From: a virus
Lineage: Duplodnaviria > Heunggongvirae > Uroviricota > Caudoviricetes
DNA length: 64,000 bases
Reading direction: 5' to 3' (one strand)
Virus record (IMG/VR): IMGVR_UViG_3300042988_000374
Coordinates: 1-64,000 of that record
Part shown: positions 4,409 to 53,222 of the stretch, one piece after another
How the letters are laid out: every line of letters begins with the position of its first letter
How positions within the stretch are numbered: the stretch's first letter is position 1
Position numbers and translations under genes: made by a program
The notes under the pieces: model-generated
The model's database searches: none
Seen by the model: only the letters and a program-made list of their open reading frames with translations
Told to the model about the DNA's origin: nothing

Positions 4409-5887
4409 ATGAAATTAGCAAATATTGAACAATTACTCGCACCTAGTGAGTCCGATAAACAGTACACTCAAGTTGAACAATTAAAGATTAGTTTAATTTG
4501 TCGTATGGATAGTTATAAATTTAGCCACCCATTTGCATATCGCCCAGGTATCAAAGCAATGTCATCTTATGGTTCGGCTAGAATCAAAAGTGATCAGATT
4601 ACTATTCCAATGGGCATGCAAATTCTAGTCAAACGCTACCTGACAGAATCCATCACTATGCGTGATATTGATGCGGCGGAAGCATTCAGTGAAGGTCACT
4701 TTGGACGTAAACTGTTTGCACGTTCAGCTTGGGAAAAAGTCGTAACAGAGTACAATGGTAAATTGCCATTGGTGATTCGTATGGTACCAGAAGGCACAAA
4801 ATTGCCAGGTGGTCTACCAATGTACACTGTCACTTGCTTTGATGCTGACTTGGCATGGATGAGTGCTGGTTTCGAAACAATGATTCAGCGTGGTATCTGG
4901 TATCCTACTACAATTGCCACTAATGATTATCACATCAAGCGTGATATCAAGCGGTACTATGAAATTACTGGCGCAGATATGGGTTTGCTTCCATTCTCGT
5001 ATCACGACTTCGGTGGCCGTGGCGTAACTTGTGGCGAACAAGCAGAGATTGGCGGCGCCGCACACACTGTTAGCTTTATGGGTAGCGATACCGTTGAAGG
5101 TATTCTAGCTGCTAACTTCTATTACAAAGAACCAATGGCAGCGTATTCAGTATATGCCACTGAGCATAGTATCGAGTGTTCTTTCGGGCCAACTGAAGAC
5201 AATGCTATTGAGTATATTCGTACTCAATTGAAACAAGTTAAGGCATTAGGTCTACCAATCGTATCAATTGTACTAGATGGTTATGATGTATATCGAGAAG
5301 CCGAGTTGTGCTGTACTGTGCTAAAGCAAGATATCATTGATTGCGGCGCAAAAGTAGTGTTCAGACCAGACAGTGGTGATATGATGGAAGTGGTGCCTCG
5401 TCTATTACGAATGCAAGAAATGGCATTTGGAGTTACCATGACTAGCAAAAACTACAAGAAGATTAACACTGTTGGTATTATTCAAGGCGACGGCGTCGAC
5501 CACATGGCGATCAATTCGTTATTGGGTAAAGTGACCGCTGTCTTGGGATATAGTGCTGATTGCGTTATCTTCGGCTCAGGTGGTGCATTGCTTCAAAAAG
5601 TCAATCGTGATACATTGAAATTTGCTCAAAAAGCATGTGCTATCTTGACAGATGATGGTTGGGTTGGCATTGCCAAGAATCCAGTTACTGACAGCGGTAA
5701 GAAATCCAAAGAGGGAGTACTAACTACTGTTCGTAGTAAAATGACTGGTGAGTTTATGACTGCTCGACTCGATCAGGCACCTTTGAATAGCGAGTTCGAA
5801 GACATTATGCAACTCGTTTACTACAAGGGCGATCTGTATAACGAAACCACTTTGGTCGAGATTCGCGCCAGAGTAGACGCTGAGTAA
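4409..5887 (+). CDS. nadV: nicotinamide phosphoribosyltransferase (NadV/NAMPT)
   Basis: 492-aa NAMPT-family protein (FGGRGVTCGEQAEIGGAAH region); pairs with the NadM-Nudix gene as in phage NAD salvage modules. Confidence 0.8.
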   Translation: MKLANIEQLLAPSESDKQYTQVEQLKISLICRMDSYKFSHPFAYRPGIKAMSSYGSARIKSDQITIPMGMQILVKRYLTESITMRDIDAAEAFSEGHFGRKLFARSAWEKVVTEYNGKLPLVIRMVPEGTKLPGGLPMYTVTCFDADLAWMSAGFETMIQRGIWYPTTIATNDYHIKRDIKRYYEITGADMGLLPFSYHDFGGRGVTCGEQAEIGGAAHTVSFMGSDTVEGILAANFYYKEPMAAYSVYATEHSIECSFGPTEDNAIEYIRTQLKQVKALGLPIVSIVLDGYDVYREAELCCTVLKQDIIDCGAKVVFRPDSGDMMEVVPRLLRMQEMAFGVTMTSKNYKKINTVGIIQGDGVDHMAINSLLGKVTAVLGYSADCVIFGSGGALLQKVNRDTLKFAQKACAILTDDGWVGIAKNPVTDSGKKSKEGVLTTVRSKMTGEFMTARLDQAPLNSEFEDIMQLVYYKGDLYNETTLVEIRARVDAE

Positions 5888-10348: not shown

Positions 10349-10675
10349 ATGACCAAAACTGTATCTATCAATCAAGAATTACTTGATGAGCAACGAATTG
10401 TTGAATTACGTGAATGGGTTACCAACACCCTGCATCGTGGTGTTACTACCGTAGTATTCACAAAAAAAGATGGTACCATTCGCACAATGGTGTGTACCTT
10501 AAACGAGAGTCTGATGCCAGTCGCGCATCGACCTAGCGAACGCGCAATGTTGTCTGAGTCTGACCGCGCGAATCGCAAATCAAATCCTGATGTTCGTACT
10601 TGCTATGACATCGAAGCTGGTGCTTGGAAATCATTCCGTCTTGACAGCATCAAAACAGTAACTGGAGATATTTAA
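10349..10675 (+). CDS. hypothetical protein
   Basis: ORF following a consensus promoter. Confidence 0.5.
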   Translation: MTKTVSINQELLDEQRIVELREWVTNTLHRGVTTVVFTKKDGTIRTMVCTLNESLMPVAHRPSERAMLSESDRANRKSNPDVRTCYDIEAGAWKSFRLDSIKTVTGDI

Positions 10676-10676
10676 T

Positions 10677-12035
10677 ATGTCAGTATACTGGATCAATAAA
10701 CTAAACGAAGATGGTGGCCGACTGCACAAAGAAGCGGCGATTCAGGATGCGCTTAACATGGCAAATCTTGGCGAATCACATAGCGCTATGTTCTTAACGC
10801 TGGCAAACTTCGCATATAATCCGTTCATTACATTCGGCGTTAAACAAGTGCCCACTACTGATGGTATCATCGATGCTGAGAATCCATGGACGGAGTTCAT
10901 TAGTTTACTCTCTAACTTGCGTGTTCGCTCACTTACTGGTCATGCTGCGCGAGACGCAGTAGAGGCAATGTCACAGCGTTTTGATAGTGCAGAGTGGAAT
11001 GGTCTTTGTCGTCCTACTATCATGAAGGACCTTCGTGCTGGTATCTCAGAAAAGACCATCAATAAGATTGTAAAGAAGACCGCATATGAGATTCCAACAT
11101 TCGGTTGTCAGCTGGCATCTTCGTGTGAAGGTCGCCCAGAAATGCGCGGCCTTAAACGCCTTGAACCTAAATTAGATGGCGTTCGTGCCCTATTCGTGGT
11201 CGATATCTCGAACACCGGTAGTTCAGTTACCTGCTACAGCCGTAACGGTAAAGTGTTCGAGAACTTTGATCATATTTGCGACCAAATTAGTACTGGCATC
11301 AAACCATTAGTTGCCAATCTCTCTAAGCACATCGGTACCAACGTACTGAATGGCTTTGTGTTAGATGGTGAAGTGATTGGTAAATCATTCAATGACTTGA
11401 TGAAGCAAGCTCGTCGCAAAACTGATGTGCAAGCTGACGACAGCACACTCTTTGTCTTTGATGTGATTCCACTCTCTGAATTCCTTGAAGGTCATTGCAA
11501 TGCTCAATTGAGTAAGCGTATCAAAGCAATTGAAGAATGCCGTTCAGTATTTGACACCATGAACAACGTTGACTTGTTGACGCATATCATGGTAGACTTA
11601 GACACTGCTGCTGGCCGCGATCAATTCGAACGCTACTGCGCTGATAAAGTTGCTGAGGGTTTTGAAGGAGCCATGGTGAAAAACTTGGACGCTCCGTACG
11701 AATGTCGTCGCAACACTAGTTGGTTAAAATACAAACCAGTCATCACTGTTGACTTAACTGTTATTGGCATCGAAGAAGGTACTGGTAAAAATGCCGGTCG
11801 TCTTGGTGCGCTAGTTTGTGAAGGCGTTGATGATGGTCGCACTATCACGGTAAATTGTGGCAGTGGGTTTACTGATGCCCAGCGAAATGATCTATGGGAC
11901 AATCGTGATGAGGTGATGGGTCGCTTAGTTGAAGTTATGGCTGACGTGGTTAGTCAGAACCAAGATGGAACACACTCACTTCGCTTCCCCCGGTTTGTTC
12001 GCTTTCGCGACACATTAACTGGCGATAAAGAATGA
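10677..12035 (+). CDS. ATP-dependent DNA ligase
   Basis: Motif I KLDGVR (LEPKLDGVRALFVVD); later EGAMVKNLDAPYECRRNTSWLKYKP resembles ligase motifs IV-V. Confidence 0.75.
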   Translation: MSVYWINKLNEDGGRLHKEAAIQDALNMANLGESHSAMFLTLANFAYNPFITFGVKQVPTTDGIIDAENPWTEFISLLSNLRVRSLTGHAARDAVEAMSQRFDSAEWNGLCRPTIMKDLRAGISEKTINKIVKKTAYEIPTFGCQLASSCEGRPEMRGLKRLEPKLDGVRALFVVDISNTGSSVTCYSRNGKVFENFDHICDQISTGIKPLVANLSKHIGTNVLNGFVLDGEVIGKSFNDLMKQARRKTDVQADDSTLFVFDVIPLSEFLEGHCNAQLSKRIKAIEECRSVFDTMNNVDLLTHIMVDLDTAAGRDQFERYCADKVAEGFEGAMVKNLDAPYECRRNTSWLKYKPVITVDLTVIGIEEGTGKNAGRLGALVCEGVDDGRTITVNCGSGFTDAQRNDLWDNRDEVMGRLVEVMADVVSQNQDGTHSLRFPRFVRFRDTLTGDKE

Positions 12036-29014: not shown

Positions 29015-30901
29015 ATGAGCAAAAACAACCCAATAGGTATCGACCTTGGTACCACAAATTCATGCGTAGCCGTTATCGAAAACGGTCAAGTCAAAGTAAT
29101 CGAAAACAGTGAGGGCGCACGAACCACACCTAGTATCGTAGCATACACACCAGACGAAATCTTAGTTGGCGCATCAGCCAAACGACAGTCAGTCACAAAC
29201 CCCAAAAACACTATCTATGCCTCTAAGCGCTTAATTGGACGCAAGTTCAAAGAAGACGCAGTACAGAAGGACATCGACTTAATGCCATACACAATCATGG
29301 AAGCAAAGAATGGTGACGCATGGGTAAAGGCACAAGACAAGGAACTGGCACCGCCACAAATCAGCGCAGAAGTGCTCCGTAAGATGAAGCAAACTGCTGA
29401 AGATTATCTTGGCACAACAGTTACTCAAGCAGTCATCACTGTACCAGCATACTTTAATGACTCACAGCGACAGGCGACCCGCGATGCTGGTAAAATCGCT
29501 GGGCTGGAAGTACTCCGTATTATCAACGAGCCAACTGCCGCGGCACTGGCATATGGTGTTGATAAAGCTACTAAAGGTGATCGCAAAGTTGCAGTCTACG
29601 ATTTGGGAGGTGGAACTTTTGACGTGTCAATTATTGAAATTGCAAACGTTGATGATGATAAACAAATCGAAGTTCTAAGTACAAACGGTGACACCTTCTT
29701 GGGTGGTGAAGACTTCGACCAGCGTATCATGGACTTCCTCATTGCTGAGTTCAAGAAAGAATCTGGTGTAGACTTATCTAAGGATGTTCTGGCACTTCAA
29801 CGTCTCAAAGAAGCCTCTGAAAAGGCAAAGATTGAATTGTCGTCTTCACAACAAACAGATGTGAACCTACCATACGTCACAGCAGATGCTAGTGGTCCTA
29901 AGCATTTGAATGTTAAGTTGACTCGTGCTAAGTTTGAATCACTGGTAGATGAATTAATTGAGCGGTCATTGGCACCATGCCGCACGGCTATGAAGGATGC
30001 TGGTGTTAGCGCTAGTGACATCGACGAAGTTATCTTGGTAGGCGGTATGACCCGTATGCCACGTGTACAAGACGCTGTTGAAAAATTGTTTGGTAAAGCA
30101 CCACGTAAAGATGTTAACCCAGATGAATGTGTTGCTGGTGGCGCCGCTATTCAAGGTTCCGTGTTAGCTGGTGATCGCACCGACGTTCTATTACTTGATG
30201 TTACTCCACTATCACTTGGTATCGAAACCATGGGCGGTGTATTCAGCAAGATGATTGAAAAGAACACCACGATTCCTACTAAGAAGTCGCAAACATTCAG
30301 TACAGCTGAAGACAACCAAGACGCGGTTGATATCAAAGTGGCACAAGGTGAGCGTGAATTATTCAAGTACAACAAGTCACTCGGTGAATTCAAACTTGAT
30401 GGCATCGCGCCTGCTCGTCGTGGTCAGCCACAGATTGAAGTTACGTTTGACATCGACAGTAACGGAATTATGAAGATCAGCGCAACTGATAAAGGTACTG
30501 GTAAAGCAAACAACATTACCATCAAATCAGATTCTGGTCTAACTGATGCTGAGATCGAACAAATGGTAAAAGATGCAGAATTGAATGCTGAAGCTGATAA
30601 GAAGCAACGCGCACTCATTGAAGCTCGTAATCAGGCAGAAGGCGCACTGGCAAACTTAAAGCGTGATGCCTCTCAAGAAACTATCTCTGATGAAGACCGT
30701 GCCAACTATGATGACGCTGTTGCGAACTTAGAGCAAGCTATGGCAGGTGAAGACGCAGATGCCATTCACAAGGCCCTTGAAAAGGCGCTTGAAGCCGCGG
30801 CACCTATCTATGCTGAAATCAACAAAAAAGCAACTGCTGAAGCTGAAGCCGCTGATAAAGCAGAAGATAGCGTAGTAGACGCTGATGTTAAGGAGGTGTA
30901 A
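29015..30901 (+). CDS. dnaK: Hsp70 chaperone DnaK
   Basis: [36 protein letters not shown] signatures; RBS AAGGAGA. Confidence 0.95.
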
Positions 30902-40027: not shown

Positions 40028-40056
40028 TTGACAATACCAATCAGCTGTGATACAAT
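40028..40056 (+). promoter_or_regulatory. sigma70 consensus promoter (TTGACA-N17-TGaTACAAT)
   Basis: TTGACA 40028-40033, TACAAT 40051-40056. Confidence 0.6.
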
Positions 40057-42772: not shown

Positions 42773-43011
42773 TGTTTGATGCGCTAGTAGATACCTTGAT
42801 TCAACCTCCAGTAAAAAAATTAATTACTAAGAGTGAGTTCGATGAATTCAACAAATGTTGGACATGGTATCTACTAGCAGATAAACGTTATGGTCAGGCA
42901 TTCTGTGAACACTTTGGTATTGATATCCATACACCACTGTATCACTTTACCAGTATCAAAATATGCCGTGATTGGATAAAGGAAAATTATCTTGAAAAGA
43001 AAATTCGTTGA
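42772..43011 (+). CDS. hypothetical protein
   Basis: ATG overlaps stop. Confidence 0.4.
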   Translation: MFDALVDTLIQPPVKKLITKSEFDEFNKCWTWYLLADKRYGQAFCEHFGIDIHTPLYHFTSIKICRDWIKENYLEKKIR

Positions 43012-43540
43012 TTTATATATGGACTGGGCAGAACGTGTTGCCCAATTGTCACATGCCAAACGCCTGCAAGTAGGCAGCGTGATTGTTAAAGACGATACTG
43101 TTATCAGTTATGGGTACAATGGTACCCCGGCAGGCTGGGACAACAACTGTGAAGACAAAGTATTCAATACGCAATACATCCAACAAAAAGACAACACGTG
43201 GATAGATCCTAACACCTACAAAGTAGTTGACATTGAAGAACACTATCCCTTCATCGCTACATCGGATGAAGATGATTCGTACATCGGCCACTATCGCTTA
43301 AAAACTAAGCCGGAAGTAATGCATAGTGAACGTAATGCACTTGACAAATTAGCACGTCAAGGCAACGTTGGTGGTAGTGGTGCTGATATCTTTATTACTC
43401 ATGCGCCCTGTTTAGAGTGCGCAAAGAGTATCCTAGGTGCTGGTATTAAGCGTGTATACTTTGGTACCGCGTATCGCGATAATAATGGCGTAGAGTTCCT
43501 CGAGAAGAGTGGTGTAGGAGTAATTCAAGTTGACAGATAA
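42992..43540 (+). CDS. dCMP deaminase
   Basis: HSERNAL (H-x-E) and PCLECAK (PCxxC) zinc ligands; dCMP deaminase length. Confidence 0.7.
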   Translation: MKRKFVDLYMDWAERVAQLSHAKRLQVGSVIVKDDTVISYGYNGTPAGWDNNCEDKVFNTQYIQQKDNTWIDPNTYKVVDIEEHYPFIATSDEDDSYIGHYRLKTKPEVMHSERNALDKLARQGNVGGSGADIFITHAPCLECAKSILGAGIKRVYFGTAYRDNNGVEFLEKSGVGVIQVDR

Positions 43541-43558
43541 TTCAAACACTGTTACAAT
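43530..43558 (+). promoter_or_regulatory. sigma70 consensus promoter (TTGACA-N17-TACAAT) at the head of the paralog array
   Basis: TTGACA 43530-43535, TACAAT 43553-43558; the only consensus promoter found from here to 51.5 kb. Confidence 0.55.
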
Positions 43559-43730
43559 TACCGTCAGATATGGTGAACTTGACGAGCCTCTAGAGTGGTG
43601 TCAAGAGCACTGTGTTGGAGCATGGGATCTCGTGAACGTCATTGATCAAGCTGGTTATGCTAATGGCACATATCAGTTCGAATTTAGTGACGAGCGAGAC
43701 ATTACTTTATTCACTCTTCGCTGGGCCTAA
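43530..43730 (+). CDS. array paralog 1 (WC-x-E-N-x-G / LF[LT]LRW family); start uncertain
   Basis: EWCQEHCVGAWD core, ends ITLFTLRWA; the only in-frame start is the TTG coinciding with the promoter -35. Confidence 0.4.
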   Translation: MTDNSNTVTITVRYGELDEPLEWCQEHCVGAWDLVNVIDQAGYANGTYQFEFSDERDITLFTLRWA

Positions 43731-43731
43731 T

Positions 43732-43929
43732 ATGTTTGAATGCACTTTTGATAAAGGCCAGTATCATCTGGTAAACGAAATGGTTCGTTGGTGCAAAGAT
43801 AACATTGGTGATGGTGGATGGTTAGCACGAAACGGTGACTTGTGGTCATGTGAAGGTGTATTCGGGCGCACCACATTCAAGTTTATGCGAGAGGATGACT
43901 ACACTCTATTCTTGTTGAGGTGGTCATGA
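43732..43929 (+). CDS. array paralog 2
   Basis: RWCKDNIGDGGW core; ends YTLFLLRWS; TGA then ATGA coupling. Confidence 0.6.
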   Translation: MFECTFDKGQYHLVNEMVRWCKDNIGDGGWLARNGDLWSCEGVFGRTTFKFMREDDYTLFLLRWS

Positions 43930-44195
43930 CTGTGATACAATACACGAATCGAATTATTATTGATGAAATGCCAGTTGAATCAGATGGTAATACACTATGG
44001 CATAAGGTCGCTATATTTACTGGCGTAACAAGGTCGGCGGTGGCGCAAAGAGGATTCAACAGTTCTGGTGACGCTATTGTTGCAATGAAGCAATGGTGCA
44101 GTGAAAATACCAACCATAAATGGAGTTCATATATCACTGTGTTTTACTTTGAAGACGAACTTGATGCAACTTTATTTACCTTGAGGTGGTCATGA
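43926..44195 (+). CDS. array paralog 3
   Basis: QWCSENTNHKW; ends ATLFTLRWS; ATGA overlap. Confidence 0.6.
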   Translation: MTVIQYTNRIIIDEMPVESDGNTLWHKVAIFTGVTRSAVAQRGFNSSGDAIVAMKQWCSENTNHKWSSYITVFYFEDELDATLFTLRWS

Positions 44196-44458
44196 TAGAT
44201 CCAAAAACTGATATAATATCGAGCAATGGGTTTAGATTCCGTGTTAATATCAAGACCACTGATGAAGTCGAGCAGTACATCAAAGACCACTGGACCACCG
44301 TGGCACTGCCAATGAATGAATTCACTGACTCTGGGTTTAGATATCGAATCATCTTTTGGATAGACGAACACGCAACTGGCAAGTGGACTAGACTTCGAAA
44401 TACTTTTTACTTTGAAAAGGAAGTTGACTCCACTCTCTTTATCTTGACACACTTATGA
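44192..44458 (+). CDS. array paralog 4 (divergent C-terminus LFILTHL)
   Basis: ATGA overlaps both sides. Confidence 0.55.
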   Translation: MIDPKTDIISSNGFRFRVNIKTTDEVEQYIKDHWTTVALPMNEFTDSGFRYRIIFWIDEHATGKWTRLRNTFYFEKEVDSTLFILTHL

Positions 44459-44772
44459 AAATTGTATGGAATCGGAGCTTAGGCTGGAATATGGAGTTCA
44501 ACAAAATGGTAAGAAAATCACGATCAGTATCAGGAGTAAGACCCGTGAATGAAATGATTATCGAAGACGGTGCTGACTGCTATCCATGGACGGAATGCTT
44601 TATCTGGTGGCCGGTTAAGACTGTCACTGGGCAACGCATCTGGTGGATAAAGGCATTCAAGCGTCGAGTATGGATCATGTGGGGCGGCGGATATCACATG
44701 GAGCCCGAGACACAATTTGCAACGGCGTTTGATTTATTGGTGTATAATCCAAAGGTAATGGGGCGAGAATGA
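44455..44772 (+). CDS. array position 5: unrelated Trp-rich insert gene
   Basis: ATGA coupled but lacks family motifs. Confidence 0.5.
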   Translation: MKIVWNRSLGWNMEFNKMVRKSRSVSGVRPVNEMIIEDGADCYPWTECFIWWPVKTVTGQRIWWIKAFKRRVWIMWGGGYHMEPETQFATAFDLLVYNPKVMGRE

Positions 44773-45149
44773 ACTTCAAAGAATGGTTAATCGACATCGA
44801 GTCTGAGACTGGTGGCTACAAGCAAGGCGATTTGATTGTCGCCTATGGGAGAGGAACAGGAAAGAGTATCATGAATTCATATGCAGATCAATGGTTCACT
44901 ACTATGGCCGAGAGAAAGATTGAAATCACTCATGGTGAATTAGTTGGTAAACAAAAATTCAAGTACTGGGTCAAAGTAAATGGACCGTGGGGTCTTGAGC
45001 GCCAAATTAATGAGTGGTGTTCGGAGACTTATGGCGCGCTTGACACACCTGGCTACAATAACCCACGCTGGGACAACAGGCGGAAGTTTGGTGTGTACAA
45101 CTTCAAACACGAAGCTGATGTTACATTATTCTTATTGAGGTGGGCATGA
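44769..45149 (+). CDS. array paralog 6
   Basis: EWCSETYGALD; ends VTLFLLRWA. Confidence 0.6.
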   Translation: MNFKEWLIDIESETGGYKQGDLIVAYGRGTGKSIMNSYADQWFTTMAERKIEITHGELVGKQKFKYWVKVNGPWGLERQINEWCSETYGALDTPGYNNPRWDNRRKFGVYNFKHEADVTLFLLRWA

Positions 45150-45391
45150 AACATTTAACATTCGATATCGCAGAAGAGCGGGCACCAGAAGTTACTAAAT
45201 GGTGCCGAGGCGCGTTTGGTAAGTCTAAACAAAATGATACGCGAATTAGCAAGATTCTTTGGTGGCGCAGAAAGATGAACACTTATGACTGCTCCCCAGA
45301 TTTTAGTAGGAACATCCATGTCAAACACATTGTCAGATTTTACTTCAAGCGTGAAGCCGACTACACCCTATTTTTACTGAGGTGGGCATGA
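45146..45391 (+). CDS. array paralog 7
   Basis: KWCRGAFGKS; ends YTLFLLRWA. Confidence 0.6.
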   Translation: MKHLTFDIAEERAPEVTKWCRGAFGKSKQNDTRISKILWWRRKMNTYDCSPDFSRNIHVKHIVRFYFKREADYTLFLLRWA

Positions 45392-45624
45392 AAGTAAACA
45401 TGTTTAATCATTGGTTCAAGTACAAGGTGCCTATTGACGACCACATTGAACAAATCAAGGTCGCCATCTTCAATGATGACTATCACATCAGATATAGCAA
45501 TCTCTGGCACTGGCTCAATGAACGCCATGATGTTGGTCAGTATTACAACTGGCGAGAAAGCAGAAACTACTTGTGCTTCAACCACGAGAGCGCCTACTTA
45601 ATATTTTTATTGAAGATATCATGA
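45388..45624 (+). CDS. array paralog 8 (C-terminus LIFLLKIS)
   Basis: ATGA overlaps. Confidence 0.55.
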   Translation: MKVNMFNHWFKYKVPIDDHIEQIKVAIFNDDYHIRYSNLWHWLNERHDVGQYYNWRESRNYLCFNHESAYLIFLLKIS

Positions 45625-46055
45625 AGAGTATATTCACACGATTGCGGGCTAAGTTTGATCGCTTTTTACACCAGCGATATCTTGAGAAGATGGGTTTGAC
45701 AGAGGAAGCATATCAACGTAAGACAGACTCACTGGTTAACTACCGAGCACTGACTGTCAGTAGCTTTTATCATGGGTACAAGGCAGTACACACATTCCAA
45801 GATGCTGGCACGGCGCCATGGAGTATGTTTGACGATTGGCTTTCAGGTCTACATAGTATACGCGAATGGTGCGAGGAGAATTGCAGCGGTAAATGGCGAG
45901 ACGATATTCATCGAGTAATTAAACAGACATCAATCGGCGTGAATGGTGAGACTGAAGAACACTTGTTTATGAACGAGATAGGTGGTCGAGACGTGGTATG
46001 CTTTGCATTTGAGAATGACGCAGACTACTTGTTATTTTTATTGAGGTGGGCATGA
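45621..46055 (+). CDS. array paralog 9
   Basis: EWCEENCSGKW; ends YLLFLLRWA. Confidence 0.6.
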   Translation: MKSIFTRLRAKFDRFLHQRYLEKMGLTEEAYQRKTDSLVNYRALTVSSFYHGYKAVHTFQDAGTAPWSMFDDWLSGLHSIREWCEENCSGKWRDDIHRVIKQTSIGVNGETEEHLFMNEIGGRDVVCFAFENDADYLLFLLRWA

Positions 46056-46252
46056 AGCAAACACATGCAAAATATAAACGATTCAAGTATGTGGTAGAGT
46101 GTAAACGCACCGCTGACTGGTGGTCTGGTGGCTGGCGTGAACGCAGTGAATGGTGCGTGGAGAATATTGGCACTGACTGGGATTACTTTGACGAGTGCTT
46201 CACGTTTAAAGATTCAGCTAGTGCGACACTCTTTATTTTAAGGTGGAAATGA
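46052..46252 (+). CDS. array paralog 10
   Basis: EWCVENIGTDWD; ends ATLFILRWK. Confidence 0.6.
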   Translation: MKQTHAKYKRFKYVVECKRTADWWSGGWRERSEWCVENIGTDWDYFDECFTFKDSASATLFILRWK

Positions 46253-46464
46253 GTATGATAATTGCAGGTGCTGGTAAATATTGGGGCAACATTGTTGACT
46301 ACTACTGGGACAATATTGATCCAACTAATGATGGGACTATCTGGGAGTGGTTAGAGCGTGAGTATAATTGTAAGAGGTCTCGCGCTATTAACAAAACGTA
46401 TACCTGGGATTTAGTATTTGATTCTGAAGAATACTATTCCCTATTTTTGCTGAGGTGGTCATGA
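46249..46464 (+). CDS. array paralog 11
   Basis: ends YSLFLLRWS; ATGA. Confidence 0.55.
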   Translation: MSMIIAGAGKYWGNIVDYYWDNIDPTNDGTIWEWLEREYNCKRSRAINKTYTWDLVFDSEEYYSLFLLRWS

Positions 46465-46694
46465 GGGTAATACCAGAACATCACAACCATCGAGTGAAGA
46501 TCAAACTCAAAGAGAATATTTGGGATATCGCTGGTCGAATTGAAGATATACAAACGATACGTGATTGGATTGCTGAGTTGACAGAATGGCAAGAAGACGA
46601 GTATACTATGAACATTTACAGTAGCGGCGGCATCATGGACGTATGGTTCAAGAAGGAAGAGTACGCTACACTTTGTGCACTGAGGTGGTCATGA
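46461..46694 (+). CDS. array paralog 12
   Basis: ends ATLCALRWS; ATGA. Confidence 0.55.
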   Translation: MRVIPEHHNHRVKIKLKENIWDIAGRIEDIQTIRDWIAELTEWQEDEYTMNIYSSGGIMDVWFKKEEYATLCALRWS

Positions 46695-46945
46695 ACAGAA
46701 TTAGCTCTGAAATCTCTTTTGATATTTACAAACGATGGTTAGTACATTGCTACCCGGAGACTGGTCACGAGCGCCTAAAGTGGACTCGTAACTTTGAGCA
46801 ATTGAAGTTGCACTACGGTGATGGACGAGACTTTGATTTGTTTGTTTTTGGTTGTGGCGGTGCCATTAGGCAAGAACACCATAAGCGATTCATTGAATTT
46901 GCCGACAGTAGCAACATGACGTTATTTGTATTGAGGTGGGCATGA
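46691..46945 (+). CDS. array paralog 13
   Basis: ends MTLFVLRWA; ATGA. Confidence 0.55.
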   Translation: MNRISSEISFDIYKRWLVHCYPETGHERLKWTRNFEQLKLHYGDGRDFDLFVFGCGGAIRQEHHKRFIEFADSSNMTLFVLRWA

Positions 46946-47160
46946 AGCTAGCTAAAGAAGATCAACTCCACGTATGGTGTGGTGGTAATAAACCAAACAT
47001 ATTCAAGCATCTGGTATACCACAGAATCGAACGTGATGTGCTCGAATGGTTACATGACAACTTTAAACGCGGCTACGGTATTGATTACTACTATCGTGAT
47101 GGTAAGATTTGGTTCAGGAATTCACGAACTGAGCTCCTATTTATATTGAGGTGGGCATGA
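46942..47160 (+). CDS. array paralog 14
   Basis: LEWLHDNFKRGYG; ends ELLFILRWA. Confidence 0.6.
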   Translation: MKLAKEDQLHVWCGGNKPNIFKHLVYHRIERDVLEWLHDNFKRGYGIDYYYRDGKIWFRNSRTELLFILRWA

Positions 47161-47438
47161 ATTACTATCACTATGACCGAGCCCCAACATGGGTCCATAC
47201 ACGGTGTCCGCCAGAAGAACGTAGCTCAAAAATCTATTACTTTGATAGTGGTAACTTACCTCAAGGTGAGTTAGACGGTGAAGGAGTGCGATGGTATCGT
47301 TTGAACTGTTCATATTGGTTTGGTGATTGGATTGAACTACAAGATAAGAAGCTATGGCGGTCTTATGGTGGACGGCATCGTGCTATCTATATTGTGCGTG
47401 AAGAATTAATGACCCTGATTAGGTTGAGGTGGCTATGA
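47157..47438 (+). CDS. array paralog 15
   Basis: ends MTLIRLRWL; ATGA. Confidence 0.55.
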   Translation: MNYYHYDRAPTWVHTRCPPEERSSKIYYFDSGNLPQGELDGEGVRWYRLNCSYWFGDWIELQDKKLWRSYGGRHRAIYIVREELMTLIRLRWL

Positions 47439-47641
47439 AGTATGATTTTACTATGTTGAAGTTAGGATACATGATGGCGGATCTCCACGCATGGTTCGTT
47501 GACAACAACTACAAGTACGGCGTTGACTGGGAATTCTTGCGAGATGAGATAATCACCGACGCCACACGAAGCTCAATCATCACCGGCATTACTATTGAGG
47601 ACAGTGAAGTGGCAACACTCTTTACACTGAGGTGGATGTGA
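47435..47641 (+). CDS. array paralog 16
   Basis: ends ATLFTLRWM; TGATG coupling. Confidence 0.55.
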   Translation: MKYDFTMLKLGYMMADLHAWFVDNNYKYGVDWEFLRDEIITDATRSSIITGITIEDSEVATLFTLRWM

Positions 47642-47916
47642 TGAACAGAATCATCAATGGTGATATGGAACAGTGGGCGCGGGCAATACTGTTCACACTG
47701 GAAGCGACACATACAAATGAAAACGGTACACTTTACCATGTGGTGTCTACCAGCGAGAGACCGATCATAGATTGGTTGACTTCACACGAACGTTGTGATA
47801 CACTTGATATCGGAAAAGGCGATGTGCTATATTTTGGTGACGCTGGCAATTCAATCAAACGATATTTTGCCGTGAGTGACCGACTATACACACTGATGAT
47901 ACTAACTTGGAAATGA
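47641..47916 (+). CDS. array paralog 17
   Basis: ends YTLMILTWK. Confidence 0.5.
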   Translation: MNRIINGDMEQWARAILFTLEATHTNENGTLYHVVSTSERPIIDWLTSHERCDTLDIGKGDVLYFGDAGNSIKRYFAVSDRLYTLMILTWK

Positions 47917-47917
47917 C

Positions 47918-48205
47918 GTGCAGGTAAACCCCGTATTTGACGACGAAGATTGGATAGAAGTGACTGACATGGAGGAATCTATTATGCTAACTGAGCGCAA
48001 GAGTAAGTACAAGCACAAGGTAACTGTGCCAAGTGACTTCACTGGTGATTTAGAACGGTCAATACGCGACTGGTGCACTGAACAGTTTGGAGCTGGTGGT
48101 CGTAATCGGCACTTGCGCTGGCGTTTTGGCTGGGTACAAAACAAGTCTACGTTTTACTTTAAGAATGACTGTGACGTGTCGTTGTTCCTACTGCGGTGGG
48201 CTTGA
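47918..48205 (+). CDS. array paralog 18 (start 47918 GTG, or 47984 ATG behind GGAGGA)
   Basis: DWCTEQFGAGG; ends VSLFLLRWA. Confidence 0.5.
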   Translation: MQVNPVFDDEDWIEVTDMEESIMLTERKSKYKHKVTVPSDFTGDLERSIRDWCTEQFGAGGRNRHLRWRFGWVQNKSTFYFKNDCDVSLFLLRWA

Positions 48206-48438
48206 TGTATTGTAAAGTGTACGATAACATTTGGGGCAAAGATTACAACATCGTGAGCTTCAAACTACCAGCTGATAGTAAACATGAACTAGTTGACTGG
48301 TGTTTAAATTCATTTGGACCATCTGGCTACGATCACGTTGCTGGTAAAGCACGATGGATTAACAATATCAGATTCGGTGAGATTCATTTTTATAATGATG
48401 CTGATGTAAACTTGTTTTTATTACGGTGGTCATCATGA
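48205..48438 (+). CDS. array paralog 19
   Basis: DWCLNSFGPSGY; ends VNLFLLRWSS; TGATG. Confidence 0.6.
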   Translation: MYCKVYDNIWGKDYNIVSFKLPADSKHELVDWCLNSFGPSGYDHVAGKARWINNIRFGEIHFYNDADVNLFLLRWSS

Positions 48439-48842
48439 TCATTAAGAGCAGCGTATCAGTTACTGTGGATGACATCAAAGAAAGGGCACTATCATTAGAA
48501 GAGGCGCGTTTGGATGCTATCGCGCAACAATGGGCACGTGATATCGATACGGAGGTACTCATGTCAGTAATGGGTTGGAATTCAATCAAGGTAAGCGAAG
48601 GTCGTGTATATGGTGCTCGTTACCATACAGCGGAGCCGGCTATCGATGGCTACGGTCTGACTACAGGTTTTGTCAGTGGTGACTGGAATGATATGCTAGC
48701 GTGGTGTGTTGATACATTTGGCGCATCCGCGTCTGTATGGGAAGCTACACCAGTTGTTAATGAACGCTGGTATGCCAACAACAGTAAATTCTGGTTTAGA
48801 CACGAAGCTGATTTAACGTTATTTTTATTACGGTGGTCTTAA
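48435..48842 (+). CDS. array paralog 20
   Basis: AWCVDTFGASAS; ends LTLFLLRWS. Confidence 0.6.
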   Translation: MIIKSSVSVTVDDIKERALSLEEARLDAIAQQWARDIDTEVLMSVMGWNSIKVSEGRVYGARYHTAEPAIDGYGLTTGFVSGDWNDMLAWCVDTFGASASVWEATPVVNERWYANNSKFWFRHEADLTLFLLRWS

Positions 48843-49075
48843 TGGCACGTAAAGTGTTTGCTACAGATAAACGCGGCTACTCATTGTGGGGCGATGATCG
48901 TGATATCATGGTGGCACTAGACTATCATCGTGACGTTCAGGAATGGTGCGAAGCTAATGGCGTAGTGGCTATAGTAAATTGTAGTTTGTTGTCAGCTAAA
49001 GCATTTGGTGTAATCTTATGGCGAATTGATGATGAAGATCAAAGACTTGTTTTTATATTAAGGTGGGGAACGTGA
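48842..49075 (+). CDS. array paralog 21
   Basis: QEWCEANGVVA; ends LVFILRWGT; TAATG. Confidence 0.55.
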   Translation: MARKVFATDKRGYSLWGDDRDIMVALDYHRDVQEWCEANGVVAIVNCSLLSAKAFGVILWRIDDEDQRLVFILRWGT

Positions 49076-49281
49076 TGGATTACAAATACGGGCGCACATG
49101 GCATACGGTAGATGCAGGTGATGGCGCATATCACCGTGAAGTTATTAAATGGTGTAAAGCACAATTTGGTTCGCATCCGCTGGTACCAGACAGTACTTCA
49201 CGCTGGTTCAATAGTATTGCACACACAATTCATTTTAGAGACGAAGAAGATTTAACGTTATTTTTATTGAGGTGGTCATGA
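49075..49281 (+). CDS. array paralog 22
   Basis: RTWHTVD...IKWCKAQFGSH; ends LTLFLLRWS. Confidence 0.6.
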   Translation: MDYKYGRTWHTVDAGDGAYHREVIKWCKAQFGSHPLVPDSTSRWFNSIAHTIHFRDEEDLTLFLLRWS

Positions 49282-49631
49282 GTAATTTAATAGACAGACT
49301 TAATCGAATTTTTACACAGCAGTCTATTGCTGATACCGCATTCAAAGTAAAGATGCCAGTACCTGGTGAAATAGACAGCTATTTTACTCTAGATAATGGC
49401 ATGGTAGGCATGAAAAGTTACTTGATGCCATCAGACCAAAAGGAGAGTGTGACTTATGGTAGTGAGTATCGCGTAGTTGATTGCAAGGCGATTGGCATAG
49501 CACCTTGGGTAGAAGAACAAGATATCACATTATGGAAATATTCGAGTCATGATGGTGAGTGTCATCCAGCATTTGTCAGATTCGTCATGCACGAAAGTCT
49601 AGTAACTTTGATGATGCTACGATGGGCGTAA
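49278..49631 (+). CDS. array paralog 23
   Basis: ends VTLMMLRWA. Confidence 0.5.
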   Translation: MSNLIDRLNRIFTQQSIADTAFKVKMPVPGEIDSYFTLDNGMVGMKSYLMPSDQKESVTYGSEYRVVDCKAIGIAPWVEEQDITLWKYSSHDGECHPAFVRFVMHESLVTLMMLRWA

Positions 49632-49825
49632 GAATCACAAACAAGTTCGCCATCGATGAAGACAACAAACACATCAGTATTCATGGATTGGTAGATCACT
49701 CAGAGTTTGACAAGATTCGCACATGGTGTTACAATCAAGGAGAATCGTTTACGTGTTATTTGACTGCTGGTATTGGCTACAGGACAGATGCTGACTTAAC
49801 ACTATTCTTATTGAGGTGGGAATGA
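49622..49825 (+). CDS. array paralog 24
   Basis: TWCYNQGESF; ends LTLFLLRWE. Confidence 0.55.
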   Translation: MGVRITNKFAIDEDNKHISIHGLVDHSEFDKIRTWCYNQGESFTCYLTAGIGYRTDADLTLFLLRWE

Positions 49826-50010
49826 CTCTCATTTATATCGACCATGACCGCTGTAACATGAATGACTTGTCTGACTGGTTGCTGGAGAATGTCGGCGATG
49901 CGTATGACTGGAGCGAGATGCGTTACAACTGGGAATGGGGAGAGTACTATGAATTCATCAAGATCAGAAGCGAAGAACACGCTACTCTGTTCCGTCTACG
50001 ATGGTGTTGA
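49822..50010 (+). CDS. array paralog 25
   Basis: DWLLENVGDAYDW; ends ATLFRLRWC. Confidence 0.55.
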   Translation: MTLIYIDHDRCNMNDLSDWLLENVGDAYDWSEMRYNWEWGEYYEFIKIRSEEHATLFRLRWC

Positions 50011-50035
50011 GTATTACGCAGTTGATACATTCTTC

Positions 50036-50197
50036 ATGCGATGGACTGCTGTTCAACAGATTAAATTGTGGCTAGTGGAGAACTTTGGCGCAAATGGTGG
50101 CGGTCTATGGCGCATGGACGATGATGGCACGTTCATGTTGTTGCTAACAGAAGAGGTACACACATTAACATTATTAAGGTGGGGCAATGAGCTTTAA
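50036..50197 (+). CDS. array paralog 26 (start uncertain)
   Basis: LWLVENFGANGGGLW; ends TLTLLRWGNEL. Confidence 0.45.
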   Translation: MRWTAVQQIKLWLVENFGANGGGLWRMDDDGTFMLLLTEEVHTLTLLRWGNEL

Positions 50198-50402
50198 CAT
50201 TTTTAAGAATTACCGAGCAGAAGAAAACACAGTGAGACGCTTGAAAGAAGAGCCGTTGCTGGAGGAGCGACCTACCATGTGTGCGATTGGTCTGCATGTT
50301 TGGAGACGCTGGAGTGAAGCCTATGACGAGGGTATCTATATCAAACAATATCGCCACTGTGAAGCGTGTGGTAAGATCAACTTTAGACGAGAAATCAAAT
50401 GA
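50187..50402 (+). CDS. array position 27: unrelated zinc-ribbon insert gene
   Basis: C..H...HCEACGK; no family motif. Confidence 0.45.
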   Translation: MSFNIFKNYRAEENTVRRLKEEPLLEERPTMCAIGLHVWRRWSEAYDEGIYIKQYRHCEACGKINFRREIK

Positions 50403-50641
50403 ATCAATACAACTTTACTCGCCGCTGGCACACGGTAAATTACGACTTCGACAATCACGATGCAGTTTACAACTGGTGCACGGAAAACTTCGGCAAACAA
50501 GATAAGAAACCGGATGCTTGGTCTCGCTGGCGCAACTTATACGCTTGCGCTATTCAATTCAGAGACGAAGCTGACTATGTGCTGTTCCTGCTTCGCTGGG
50601 GAGATTCCGAAGCTGAGTACTATGCGAGTTCTGAGTTATGA
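50399..50641 (+). CDS. array paralog 28
   Basis: RRWHTVN...YNWCTENFGKQ; ...YVLFLLRWG plus short tail. Confidence 0.6.
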   Translation: MNQYNFTRRWHTVNYDFDNHDAVYNWCTENFGKQDKKPDAWSRWRNLYACAIQFRDEADYVLFLLRWGDSEAEYYASSEL

Positions 50642-50853
50642 TAGTAGTACCCAATAAACAGTGGTATTGGCAAACTCTGCGCACCATCAACAAGAATCTC
50701 AATTTTGGCAAAACATCAATCAATGACATTGGTGTTCACATTGAAGAGCAATACGGTGTACGATGGGTACTAAACGGCGATGGTTTAATCTCCGATCAAT
50801 ACGAAGTGGTTGATGATGAAAAGCACACCATATTCCTGTTAAAGTACGCATGA
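50638..50853 (+). CDS. array paralog 29 (variant LLKY C-terminus)
   Basis: ends TIFLLKYA; ATGA. Confidence 0.5.
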   Translation: MIVVPNKQWYWQTLRTINKNLNFGKTSINDIGVHIEEQYGVRWVLNGDGLISDQYEVVDDEKHTIFLLKYA

Positions 50854-51068
50854 AATATACCGTTAAGTATTATACCACAAGTGTAGTAGAGACCATGCGC
50901 GTAGTCAATGAATTACGTGGTACACTGAAGCAACACATTGACTTTGAGTTCGCCTGGCACTCAACTAAATGGTGTGACGTATCTTTTGCTGTGATTGACG
51001 AAGGTCACGTGGTATTCAGTTTTGCAACAGAAGAACTGGCAACTTATTTTACGCTCAAATATCTATGA
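50850..51068 (+). CDS. array paralog 30
   Basis: TKWCDVSF; ends TYFTLKYL; ATGA. Confidence 0.5.
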   Translation: MKYTVKYYTTSVVETMRVVNELRGTLKQHIDFEFAWHSTKWCDVSFAVIDEGHVVFSFATEELATYFTLKYL

Positions 51069-51358
51069 ATTTCGCAGTAGCACATGACGCCATATTCGAT
51101 GGCTTACACTTGAAGGAGATCAAGATGGTCCTAAAGGATTTTAAATTCACTGACCTACATAGCGATGTGGTAACATACGTTGATGGTGCACGATGGTACA
51201 CTGTTGCTGGTAATAAGGAAGTGGGCGCATGGCTCAGAAGCGCATTTGCTGATGAAGAAAAGTCACTGTGGTTCAGTCTAGGTCAAGCTAATTCAACCAT
51301 TGAACGTTTTGATGTTCATGAAATGGTGCACACCCAGATCCTGCTCAAATTCACATGA
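51065..51358 (+). CDS. array paralog 31
   Basis: ends TQILLKFT; ATGA. Confidence 0.5.
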   Translation: MNFAVAHDAIFDGLHLKEIKMVLKDFKFTDLHSDVVTYVDGARWYTVAGNKEVGAWLRSAFADEEKSLWFSLGQANSTIERFDVHEMVHTQILLKFT

Positions 51359-51552
51359 AACAACATAAGAGACGTACCAAGACAATCGAATTAGTGAAAT
51401 GGCTCAGAGCTAATGGTGAGCGATTCACTGACTGGGACATATCTGGTGGATACACTAACCTAACTATCACTTTTAAGAATGAAAAGTTAGAGTTAGCATA
51501 CATCATGTTGTGGGATTGGGCGGACCCTGACCCAACCAGCAATCGTACTTGA
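51355..51552 (+). CDS. array paralog 32 (last, variant C-terminus)
   Basis: ends AYIMLWDW...; overlaps convergent minus-strand ORF by ~50 nt. Confidence 0.45.
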   Translation: MKQHKRRTKTIELVKWLRANGERFTDWDISGGYTNLTITFKNEKLELAYIMLWDWADPDPTSNRT

Positions 51553-51685
51553 GCAGCAAATAACTAGTCAGTGGACCGTCTTCGAGTTCAATCTCATATT
51601 GAAAAACATGTGGGAAGCGGCTCAGGAGCATCCGATGCACGGGCCAATGTCTGACACCAGCCGCCTTAATATCACGCATGGCCAT
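51503..51685 (-). CDS. minus-strand member of the same family (..TSYLLLKYD)
   Basis: C-terminal TSYLLLKY resembles the LLKY variant of plus paralogs 29-31. Confidence 0.4.
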   Translation of the reverse strand: MAMRDIKAAGVRHWPVHRMLLSRFPHVFQYEIELEDGPLTSYLLLKYDCWLGQGPPNPTT

Positions 51686-51722
51686 GCGGAATTCGGCTTC
51701 CTTGACGCATATCTTGATGGTA

Positions 51723-52301
51723 TTACTCGTCGTCATCTTCGTCATCACCTTCCATATAGTCATTTTGCAACTTAGACCAGAGAGACTTGTCGTCATAAGC
51801 TCGGTACTGAGTCTCATTTGGCATCAAGATTCTGAACTTGTCACCGTATTTGAGTAGCAGGTAAGTTACCATCTCCGAATCAAGTAAGTCGCATACCGTA
51901 TATGCTGATGAACACGCGCCATGAATTACCTTGAATGGAGAATGACGGACGCCTTCTTCTTTTAAGGTATTACCAAATGATGTACTGTGAAAGATGATTC
52001 GAGAGATGCCTAGTCGCTGATTGCGAAGACGCACTTTGTCGAACAGGGAGAGTTTTGAGATGGTGGCGCAATTGTCATCGTCAATGGTGAGTAAACACTC
52101 TTTGAATTTAATGCTGCCCTTGGTGTGCGAGTTGTCTGGTGTTTCTTTGGTGGACCATGGTATCTCTGCTGAGACATGATTCACGTAAAACGACTCGCCG
52201 TGTGTTTTGATGATCCACATGGGAATTGTTGGGTCTTCAAGATGTTTTTTGTTAAAGTGAAAAACCAAGTCTTTACATGCGTATTCAATCTATTGTGTCA
52301 T
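51723..52301 (-). CDS. hypothetical protein with internal YLLLKYG motif; likely start ATG 52301 with an in-frame TAG at codon 4 (alternative start TTG 52268 or ATG 52220)
   Basis: minus strand reads AAGGAGAttaaaATG ACA CAA TAG ATT GAA ... in frame with the long ORF; contains EMVTYLLLKYGDKF; acidic C-terminal tail. Confidence 0.45.
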
Positions 52302-52332
52302 TTTAATCTCCTTTGTGTTATGACGTTAATTG

Positions 52333-52863
52333 TTAAGGGTCAATTGTAACCACGAACTCTTTGCAATCAGAATCGTTCATTCGCTCAATGAGAACATTGT
52401 GTCCACTGCGATCAGTAAACATATAGCTCTCGCCTTCAGCCAAACGATGTTGATATGCGATGGAACCATCACCACTCCATATGGTAACGTATGGTTTCAA
52501 AATTGTTGGGTTGTTCAAACCAAAATAAACATCTGGTTTTACTCCATGGCATTCGACAATACCTGCGACATCAGTTGCGCCCATCTGTTGGTAGAACAGT
52601 GCCCAGAATGCCATGGAAATTGGATTCGTAATTGTGCGCAGTGAGATTACACTAAACGAACCTGTCTTTGATGGCCAAGGTTGTGTCTTCTTATTGATTG
52701 TGTAGGTGTCTACTTTGTTGATGGCAATTACTGTAGACAACATTAACTTATGGTCTACGGTCATTCCAGGGCCAGCTTTAACTACCACATGCGTATCTTT
52801 GTAGAAGAGATTACGGAGTGGATTAGTCCACTGTAGAATGGCGTGTTTTAGTAGTCTCAGCAT
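52333..52863 (-). CDS. hypothetical protein
   Basis: ATG immediately after the upstream gene's stop (TAATATG). Confidence 0.45.
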   Translation of the reverse strand: MLRLLKHAILQWTNPLRNLFYKDTHVVVKAGPGMTVDHKLMLSTVIAINKVDTYTINKKTQPWPSKTGSFSVISLRTITNPISMAFWALFYQQMGATDVAGIVECHGVKPDVYFGLNNPTILKPYVTIWSGDGSIAYQHRLAEGESYMFTDRSGHNVLIERMNDSDCKEFVVTIDP

Positions 52864-53147: not shown

Positions 53148-53222
53148 TGGTGCGTGTGGAGAGAATCGAACTCTCATTCAACGTTTTAGAGGCGCTTTCC
53201 TTAACCACTAGGATACACACGC
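53148..53222 (-). tRNA. tRNA with CUA anticodon (amber suppressor-type), CCA encoded
   Basis: minus-strand cloverleaf: acceptor GCGUGUG/CACACGC, D-stem UCCU/AGGA, anticodon loop C-U-CUA-A-A, T-arm GAGAG-UUCGAUU-CUCUC, discriminator A, genomic CCA. Confidence 0.65.

Follow-up and report, generated by a model that had tools for sequence, protein, structure and literature searches.

This report concerns a tandem array of 32 small genes (g1 to g32) at positions 43530-51552 of a 64,000-nucleotide (nt) stretch of viral DNA, here called the window (IMG/VR record IMGVR_UViG_3300042988_000374, positions 1 to 64,000, a virus of the Caudoviricetes). We hold with moderate confidence that the array is an early battery of individually specialised binding proteins, built as a coupled tandem array of a protein family found only in phages. 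The codons that end one gene provide the ribosome-binding site of the next, and this co-encoding is statistically solid. Each paralog lineage is also kept as an orthologue across phages, which argues for about 30 distinct targets or specificities rather than for dosage or rapid diversification. The protein family is new, but its expression scheme is of a known kind and not categorically new.

Array organisation, junctions and transcription

The genes were taken from an open reading frame (ORF) listing over 43000-52500, using for each gene the start closest to the preceding stop. All 32 point in the same direction (+) with a spacer of at most 1 nt at every junction, leaving essentially no non-coding DNA. 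This bears out the first-pass annotation, made by a model from the letters and their ORFs, which had described 32 co-directional small genes without intergenic space. Its count of at least 28 ATGA, TGATG or TAATG junctions was too high: of the 31 internal junctions, 26 are of these kinds (22 ATGA, 4 TGATG or TAATG), two have 1-nt spacers (g2, g18) and three are longer overlaps (g24, 10 nt; g27, 11 nt; g26, 62 nt). Across all 31, stop and next start overlap or abut, as in a translationally coupled cluster. We count 30 of the 32 genes as family (22 recognised by a profile hidden Markov model (HMM) and 8 divergent), the rest being g5 and g27.

The features of the array are given below. E values are those of profile A2, an HMM built from foreign sequences only, or, for the eight divergent members, those of a held-out HMM; lengths are in amino acids (aa).

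43530-43558 (+): early-type sigma-70 promoter TTGACA-17-TACAAT, TG-extended; lies across the TTG start of g1, transcripts would start inside g1
43530-43730 (+): g1, member, 66 aa; E 4.5e-9; 59% orthologue in L040; ends CGC-TGG-GCC-TAA
43732-43929 (+): g2, member, 65 aa; E 5.9e-13
43926-44195 (+): g3, member, 89 aa, ATGA junction; E 2.1e-9
44192-44458 (+): g4, member, 88 aa, C-terminus decayed to L-T-H-L; E 5e-5
44455-44772 (+): g5, unrelated Trp-rich resident, 105 aa, ATGA on both sides; no family, Pfam or PHROGs match
44769-45149 (+): g6, member, 126 aa, 80-aa N-extension (AYGRGTGKS); E 5.8e-17; orthologue 59% over 115 aa
45146-45391 (+): g7, member, 81 aa; E 1.9e-11
45388-45624 (+): g8, member, 78 aa, C-terminus L-L-K-I-S; E 5.8e-5
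45621-46055 (+): g9, member, 144 aa, 95-aa N-extension; E 5.7e-5; orthologue 49% over 144 aa
46052-46252 (+): g10, member, 66 aa; E 1.3e-8
46249-46464 (+): g11, member, 71 aa; E 3.6e-4
46461-46694 (+): g12, member, 77 aa, holds promoter-like TTGACA-18-TATACT at 46578-46607; E 5e-5
46691-46945 (+): g13, member, 84 aa; E 2.9e-5
46942-47160 (+): g14, member, 72 aa; E 8.4e-8
47157-47438 (+): g15, probable divergent member, 93 aa, ends L-R-W-L; held-out E 0.068; hhalign P 1.5e-4; 73% partial orthologue in L062
47435-47641 (+): g16, probable divergent member, 68 aa; held-out E 1.1e-3
47641-47916 (+): g17, probable divergent member, 91 aa, ends L-T-W-K; held-out E 0.033; hhalign
47918-48205 (+): g18, member, 95 aa, GTG start; E 4.3e-16; orthologue P0009, 61%
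48205-48438 (+): g19, member, 77 aa, TGATG junction; E 2.7e-15
48435-48842 (+): g20, member, 135 aa, N-extension; E 1.4e-22; orthologue 47% over 110 aa
48842-49075 (+): g21, member, 77 aa, TAATG junction; E 1.8e-3; orthologue 55%
49075-49281 (+): g22, member, 68 aa, modelled representative (AlphaFold2); E 1.6e-23
49278-49631 (+): g23, probable divergent member, 117 aa, ends CGA-TGG-GCG-TAA; held-out E 8.9e-4; the ATG within its R-W codons starts g24
49622-49825 (+): g24, member, 67 aa, holds promoter TTGACA-17-TACAAT at 49707-49735; E 7.7e-7
49822-50010 (+): g25, member, 62 aa, ends CGA-TGG-TGT-TGA; E 2.1e-6
49949-50197 (+): g26, member, 82 aa if ATG 49949 is the start; E 1.1e-5
50187-50402 (+): g27, unrelated Cys-containing resident, 71 aa, start served by the R-W ribosome-binding site of g26; no family, Pfam or PHROGs match
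50399-50641 (+): g28, member, 80 aa, 13-aa tail past R-W; E 5.5e-25
50638-50853 (+): g29, probable divergent member, 71 aa, ends L-L-K-Y-A, no ribosome-binding site for the next gene; held-out E 0.14; hhalign P 1.5e-4
50850-51068 (+): g30, probable divergent member, 72 aa, ends T-L-K-Y-L; held-out E 0.026; 40% orthologue in L062
51065-51358 (+): g31, probable divergent member, 97 aa, ends L-L-K-F-T; held-out E 0.12; 42% orthologue in L062
51355-51552 (+): g32, 65 aa, the final member and the most doubtful one; held-out E 0.051

A few boundaries deserve comment. The TTG start of g1 overlaps the stop of a dCMP deaminase gene by 11 nt. The GTG start of g18 lies 1 nt past the g17 stop, and its orthologue P0009 starts at the same residue. 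For g26 no in-frame start exists at the junction; its likeliest start is the ATG at 49949, with GGGGAG 6 nt upstream, which we take on the basis of the sequence and of a gene call in L001. The gene then overlaps g25 over 49949-50010 in a different frame, the sole long out-of-frame overlap in the array, and the ATG at 50001, internal to g25, is out of frame for g26. At its 3' end the array is followed by convergent minus-strand genes. Two minus-strand ORFs just past the array (51723-52268 and 51503-51817) contain TYLLLKYG and SYLLLKYD and recall the L-L-K-Y ends of g29-g31; the family HMM has no significant match in either (E 3.7 for the first).

The proposal that the conserved C-terminus encodes both protein and the ribosome-binding site of the next gene is supported by codon statistics as well as by pairing with the ribosomal RNA. 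The ending L-R-W-[A/S]-stop is spelled YTG-AGG-TGG-NNA-TGA, which places the Shine-Dalgarno (SD) sequence GAGGTGG 5 nt ahead of an ATG that overlaps the stop. In 16 of the 22 motifs the codon for the Arg of L-R-W is AGG (binomial p 4e-22), which makes up 2.3% of the Arg codons in the window's 41 long ORFs and 6.3% of those in the rest of the array. This bias does not come from shared ancestry, because the conserved Thr, Leu and Phe positions directly before it vary freely among 4, 6 and 2 synonymous codons; that these neighbours are scrambled while AGG is kept indicates that the nucleotides themselves are under selection. The last sense codon ends in A in 23 of the 32 genes and the stop is TGA in 28. 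Pairing with the anti-SD at the 16S 3' end is at or below -6 kcal/mol at 17 of the 32 starts versus 6% of random positions, and the strongest pairings are all supplied by the R-W codons. Eleven starts have no usable SD (g2, g5, g9, g18, g24, g26 as scored at a start at 50036, and g28-g32). The motif has decayed in g4 (LTHL), g8 (LKIS) and g29-g31 (LKY or LKF), and there the next gene has the ATGA overlap only, with no SD.

The same grammar is found in the 508 unique family ORFs from the scanned loci of other phages, with ATGA junctions in 352 and TAATG or TGATG in 43. Arg is AGG in 219 of their 286 R-W motifs, with the motifs used to find the loci excluded. With an ATG 3-11 nt downstream this use is 82%, without one 48% (p 1.3e-5), and a fall of this sort is the expected signature of selection for a ribosome-binding site. 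The coupling grammar is a trait of the family, across phages.

As for transcription, the motif TTGACA-N16-18-TAYAAT has 13 exact sites in the window, all on the plus strand between 10295 and 49735, versus 0.2 expected, several of them with a TG extension. It is evidently the host-sigma-70 early promoter class of this phage and would mark an early region of about 40 kilobases (kb). The promoter at 43530-43558 that the first-pass annotation described is real, but it is not the only one in the array, as had been claimed: a second exact copy lies at 49707-49735 (in g24) and a weaker variant, TTGACA-18-TATACT, at 46578 (in g12). Two further exact copies at 40028 and 42248 read into the array from upstream. 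Because the 43530 promoter overlaps the start of g1, this gene must be read from upstream transcripts. The array was right to be called free of terminators, in that it has a single weak 5-base-pair plus-strand stem and none at its end. With internal promoters present and no convincing terminator, several nested polycistronic early transcripts are to be expected; the single 8-kb mRNA from one promoter gives way to at least two strong early-type promoters within the array, together with read-through from upstream.

Family membership, relatives and predicted fold

The alignment of the 30 proteins has a near-invariant Trp in helix 1, a second Trp and the ending F-x-F-x-x-E-x-D-x-T-L-F-L-L-R-W-x, with L-R-W found in 22 members. 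From the shared core first proposed, the near-invariant Trp and the F-x-F...L-R-W ending hold, but W-C as a dipeptide occurs in about 15 members and not in 26. Family proteins are 60-144 aa long; about 60 residues at the C-terminal end form the domain, and the N-terminal extension ahead of it is specific to each paralog. Against the 1056 six-frame ORFs of the window, profile A2 finds 22 array genes at E<0.01 (best scores 5.5e-25 for g28, 1.6e-23 for g22 and 1.4e-22 for g20) and zero elsewhere, so that 22 of the 30 members share significant motifs by a profile made of foreign proteins. The remaining eight (g15, g16, g17, g23 and g29-g32) have E values of 0.2-8.7 with A2. They are the next-best window ORFs under the held-out model (E 9e-4 to 0.14), and in profile-profile comparison (hhalign) they give P=1.5e-4 with a probability of 52%; by sequence comparison they are probable divergent members. 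An AlphaFold2 model of g29 from a 4-sequence alignment has a predicted local distance difference test score (pLDDT) of 61, a confidence too low to settle the membership of the tail genes. The K-[WYF] endings also occur in profile-positive members elsewhere, as found with a profile that included the eight window genes. A weak family match at 10414-10533 was rejected as a chance ORF of 40 aa.

The two genes first described as unrelated inserts that still obey the coupling grammar, g5 and g27, are just that: neither matches the family, Pfam or PHROGs, and g27 carries a C...H...CxxC pattern. They are stable residents of the array and are kept in a related phage, where the g5 orthologue (55%, L040 1080-1394, in the corresponding position) and the g27 orthologue (49%, L062 1472-1708) both lie inside the related array. 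The family was not recognised in the first pass, and it is indeed without annotation in every library tested, as neither window members nor relatives have a match to the family domain in Pfam, PHROGs, NCBIfam, PADLOC or the sequences of the PDB. For known defence or anti-defence functions, neither the PADLOC models nor solved anti-defence structures gave a match, and in the literature we found no description of such arrays. The N-terminus of g6 (GRGTGKS) was considered as a Walker-A fragment of a terminase and rejected, with no support in Pfam, PHROGs or tblastn.

The array had seemed a one-off oddity of unparalleled scale. A word-indexed protein search with the array alignment did return the source contig only, which is the same phage at 99.98% identity. 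An exhaustive HMM search gave 2769 cluster representatives (50% identity clusters) at E<=1e-3, those that carry a name being all 'hypothetical', and arrays of 12-21 copies exist in other phage contigs, so this impression has to be given up. Loci were located with a 21-nt degenerate junction pattern, TTYYTNYTNAGGTGGKCATGA; at least 120 IMG/VR stretches contain it, and their contigs are up to 374 kb long. Family ORFs are present at 119 of 120 such loci; with L003 and L004 there are 540 family ORFs in 121 loci. Copy number ranges from 1 to 21 per locus, the largest arrays having 21 copies in 8.5 kb (L095), 15 (L012, L117) and 14 (L051), and two more large contigs have 12 and 14 copies. Tandem arrays are the usual setting of this family. 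Two of the relatives (P0022 at L003 10001-10459, and P0131) are two-domain proteins with tandem family domains, as the loss of a stop at a junction would give, and in P0039 the family domain is fused to a DUF4116 repeat.

The junction pattern has 99 single hits in 596 gigabases of bacterial and archaeal genomes, about the number expected by chance, and family ORFs are present at 1 of these 99, on a 1.6-kb contig of a metagenome-assembled genome. On this evidence the family is phage-restricted. The pattern also matches one locus in many Pelagibacter genomes and single-amplified genomes (L131, L132, L147, L161 and about 50 others). These loci hold no family ORFs and the match is a chance one in a conserved AT-rich chromosomal gene, which is a caution for pattern-only searches. 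Among 50,697 phage records, tblastn with foreign members or the consensus found only one weak place, in Sinorhizobium phage Phosso (469 kb); by the HMM this is a true member, and its annotation there is hypothetical. Megablast of the array and tblastn of its 882-aa neighbour against the same records gave no match.

The age of the array can be judged from its repeats and its orthologues. The junctions of 28-60 nt are the only DNA repeats, and there are no recent duplications. All 32 genes match another phage better than any other gene of the array, with a best in-array identity of 49%; paralogs are 20-49% identical and their isoelectric points (pI) run from 4.1 to 9.9. The related phage (IMGVR_UViG_3300047558_000174; L040 and L062) has a metallophosphoesterase, an exonuclease, a MazG-like gene and a dCMP deaminase (53%), followed by an array with orthologues of g1, g2, g5, g6, g11, g10, g14, g15, g18, g20, g21, g28, g27, g23, g30, g9, g31. 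Its orthologues are 40-60% identical to ours, with fewer copies and some reordering (g9 moved, g10 and g11 swapped). The N-termini had been called hypervariable; they are paralog-specific, yet orthologues keep them as well as they keep the C-domain (N-extension versus C-domain identity 61/64% for g6, 48/51% for g9 and 50/57% for g18), and for this reason we describe them as paralog-specific rather than fast-evolving. Judged by these comparisons, the array is an old and stable set of distinct lineages.

A confident model of the domain was obtained by AlphaFold2 for g22 with the 30-paralog alignment (pLDDT 91, predicted template modelling score 0.75), in which the elements follow as E-E-H-E-E-H, or ββαββα. 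Foldseek found nothing significant in the PDB; in BFVD it found dozens of uncharacterised proteins from uncultured phages. An enzyme of the DCoH type (pterin-4a-carbinolamine dehydratase), which has a ββαββα fold, was considered and is excluded by the lack of a conserved His: there is no His in the conserved columns, and there is no Pfam match to this family. The wide range of pI argues against a uniform role as DNA mimic or in nucleic-acid binding.

A large subfamily elsewhere (P0172-P0283, P0010, P0016, P0055 and P0072), with proteins of about 110-130 aa, carries a Gp23 fragment (PF07068 positions 6-47; consensus LLPMIRxxxPxxIAxxxxGVQPM) ahead of the family domain. The fragment matches major capsid proteins of T4-superfamily jumbo phages with 53% identity over 34 aa. 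Its genes sit within arrays, far from any capsid gene (for instance L126 10001-10336 and L128 10001-10339), and it is absent from all window members, by their sequences and by Pfam on 5 of them. This fragment is probably the Gol region of T4 gp23, a stretch of 29 residues that is the best-conserved part of the protein; Gol binds to EF-Tu and sets off the Lit protease (PMC3014915). The likeness lies in the same conserved part of the capsid protein being found in the N-termini of the relatives; the difference is that the 30 window members have no copy of it.

Proposed mechanism and alternatives

The reading that we favour, an early battery of specialised binding proteins, would work as follows. 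Host sigma-70 RNA polymerase would start at the early-type promoters upstream and at 43530 and 49707, and with no terminators between them overlapping polycistronic mRNAs would result. Each cistron would then be translated by coupling to the preceding one, the ribosome that ends one gene unfolding and exposing the strong initiation site of the next. The coupling probably depends on the strong SD being exposed and does not oblige ribosomes to re-initiate; in E. coli coupling does not mainly go through re-initiation (PMC7538156), and a strict relay of re-initiating ribosomes is not required. One ORF, from its ATG to the ATGA, would be a self-sufficient expression cassette, and recombination at the conserved junction of about 28 nt could duplicate, remove or relocate such cassettes within the array with no need for new signals. 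The common stable scaffold would carry differing N-termini, loops and surface charge, so that the members would be early protein-binding modules whose most likely use is host takeover or counter-defence.

Looking at the possible problems with this reading, its weakest part is the specialised binding role in host takeover or counter-defence, which we infer from sequence. Several observations weigh against it. Nothing links the fold to a known activity. The orthologues diverge no faster than the flanking enzymes (deaminase 53%, array members 40-60%), and this is not the usual signature of arms-race effectors. The coupling grammar is not universal, given the 11 junctions without a usable SD. Eight of the members are marginally recognisable and the AlphaFold2 model of g29 is too uncertain to help. 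Early expression, finally, is suggested by promoter motifs alone.

An alternative explanation, which we regard as unlikely, is that the genes are largely selfish cassettes, in which the junction serves as a recombination and expression module and the proteins are of little or no benefit to the phage. The junction is after all the sole repeat at the DNA level, copy number and order vary between related phages (g9 moved, g10 and g11 swapped, fewer copies), loci hold anything from 1 to 21 copies, and all this resembles the shuffling mediated by promoter-early stem-loop (PeSL) elements in the hyperplastic regions of T4-type phages (PMC4122927). However, selfish cassettes would not explain why the proteins are conserved in sequence and fold while their synonymous codons are scrambled, nor why each paralog, N-extension included, is still found as a 40-60% orthologue in partial synteny; there are no recent duplicates, the best in-array identity being 49%, and the array has no homing or recombinase gene. 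Also unlikely is that ββαββα is a display scaffold and the arrays are early decoy or bait batteries, each member with another N-terminal peptide or surface and some of them mimicking late phage proteins. The copies of the capsid Gol region in other phages would then mimic the part that binds EF-Tu and is sensed by Lit-type systems, host sensors or EF-Tu would be occupied or blunted before the real late proteins appear, and the junction grammar would let phages build and reshuffle such batteries ORF by ORF.

The Gp23 fragment also bears on a role as capsid-associated proteins, be it internal head proteins, decoration or assembly factors, which we consider very unlikely. Relatives with a PF07068 fragment before the domain do point to capsid targeting, and the fragment matches jumbo-phage major capsid proteins. 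However, no window member has it, the array lies behind nucleotide-metabolism genes and sigma-70-type early promoters and not in a structural module, the relatives that carry the fragment are inside arrays distant from the gene of the major capsid protein, and thirty different decoration proteins would be unprecedented. The least credible explanation, to which we give hardly any weight, is a dosage array, in which many copies of one function supply much activity fast. The tandem layout, strong SDs and strong promoters would suit it, but paralogs with 20-49% identity, pI values of 4.1-9.9 and differing N-extensions are hardly copies of one function; each has its own orthologue elsewhere, and there is no gene conversion or homogenisation outside the junction.

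Known systems, significance and other features of the phage

Dense small genes behind strong early promoters and ribosome-binding sites are known from the host-takeover module of SPO1 and from the pre-replicative small genes of T4. The array resembles these in the density of small genes; there the genes are unrelated, whereas here one family has 30 members. Many small diverged paralogs, each presumably with another partner, also make up the SUKH/Imm immunity arrays at polymorphic-toxin loci. The difference is that here no toxin gene is attached and no sequence or fold link was found: the upstream gene is of the dCMP-deaminase type (PF00383, E 5e-20) and not a toxin, and the arrays in other phages have other neighbours, without the deaminase.

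Stop/start (AUGA) coupling with an SD in the upstream ORF is classical in operons and phage clusters (PMC12548453). Our junctions are alike in having 4- or 1-nt overlaps, in an SD that lies within the coding sequence of the gene before, 5 nt ahead of the ATG, and in the way that the downstream SD bends the 3' synonymous codons of the upstream gene. They differ in that the SD is built into a family-wide R-W motif (AGG-TGG), about 20 in a row here and kept in hundreds of members in other phages. The hyperplastic regions of T4-type phages with their PeSL cassettes (PMC2839356, PMC4122927) likewise hold small, mostly unknown early genes, with boundary sequences that carry an expression signal and are possible recombination points, and with content and order that differ between related phages. 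PeSLs are intergenic, a terminator plus promoter around unrelated ORFs, whereas the signal here is coding and translational and the genes are paralogs. A PeSL-type stem-loop with promoter was looked for at the boundaries and not found; there is one weak plus-strand stem-loop in 14 kb, and the promoters lie within coding sequence. The gain, loss and shuffling of cassettes at the junction may still be analogous to PeSL shuffling (PMC4122927).

These findings are of use in several ways. A large phage family, to which some phages devote 5-12% of a genome region, is missing from all annotation libraries that we tested. The junctions are a clean natural case of dual coding with a built-in control, as AGG use drops without a downstream start, and one-ORF cassettes suggest how phages may expand and reshuffle batteries without regulatory DNA. 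If the members do bind host or defence proteins specifically, each array would list about 30 targets ready-made. Relatives with Gol-like fusions offer a directly testable entry point by way of EF-Tu and Lit-type or capsid-sensing systems.

Some other features of the phage may be added. Among its genes are a DnaK/Hsp70 homologue of full length (52-68% identity to the DnaK proteins of bacteria and megaphages), one for a nicotinamide phosphoribosyltransferase and one for an ATP-dependent DNA ligase, which are listed together in the window at

29015-30901 (+); also 4409-5887 and 10677-12035: DnaK/Hsp70, nicotinamide phosphoribosyltransferase, DNA ligase

The best match of the ligase in the 50,697 phage records is only 35% identical; the phage is uncultured, large and very divergent. 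A transfer RNA (tRNA) is the only match in Rfam (59.9 bits). It lies at 53148-53222 (-) and has the anticodon CTA, that of an amber suppressor (labelled Pyl by ARAGORN), with TTGACT-17-TACAAT just upstream at 53259-53231. Among the window's 41 long ORFs only 2 end in TAG. A tRNA(cta) is likewise present in Sinorhizobium phage Phosso, at L125 2940-3015, a few kb from its family member.

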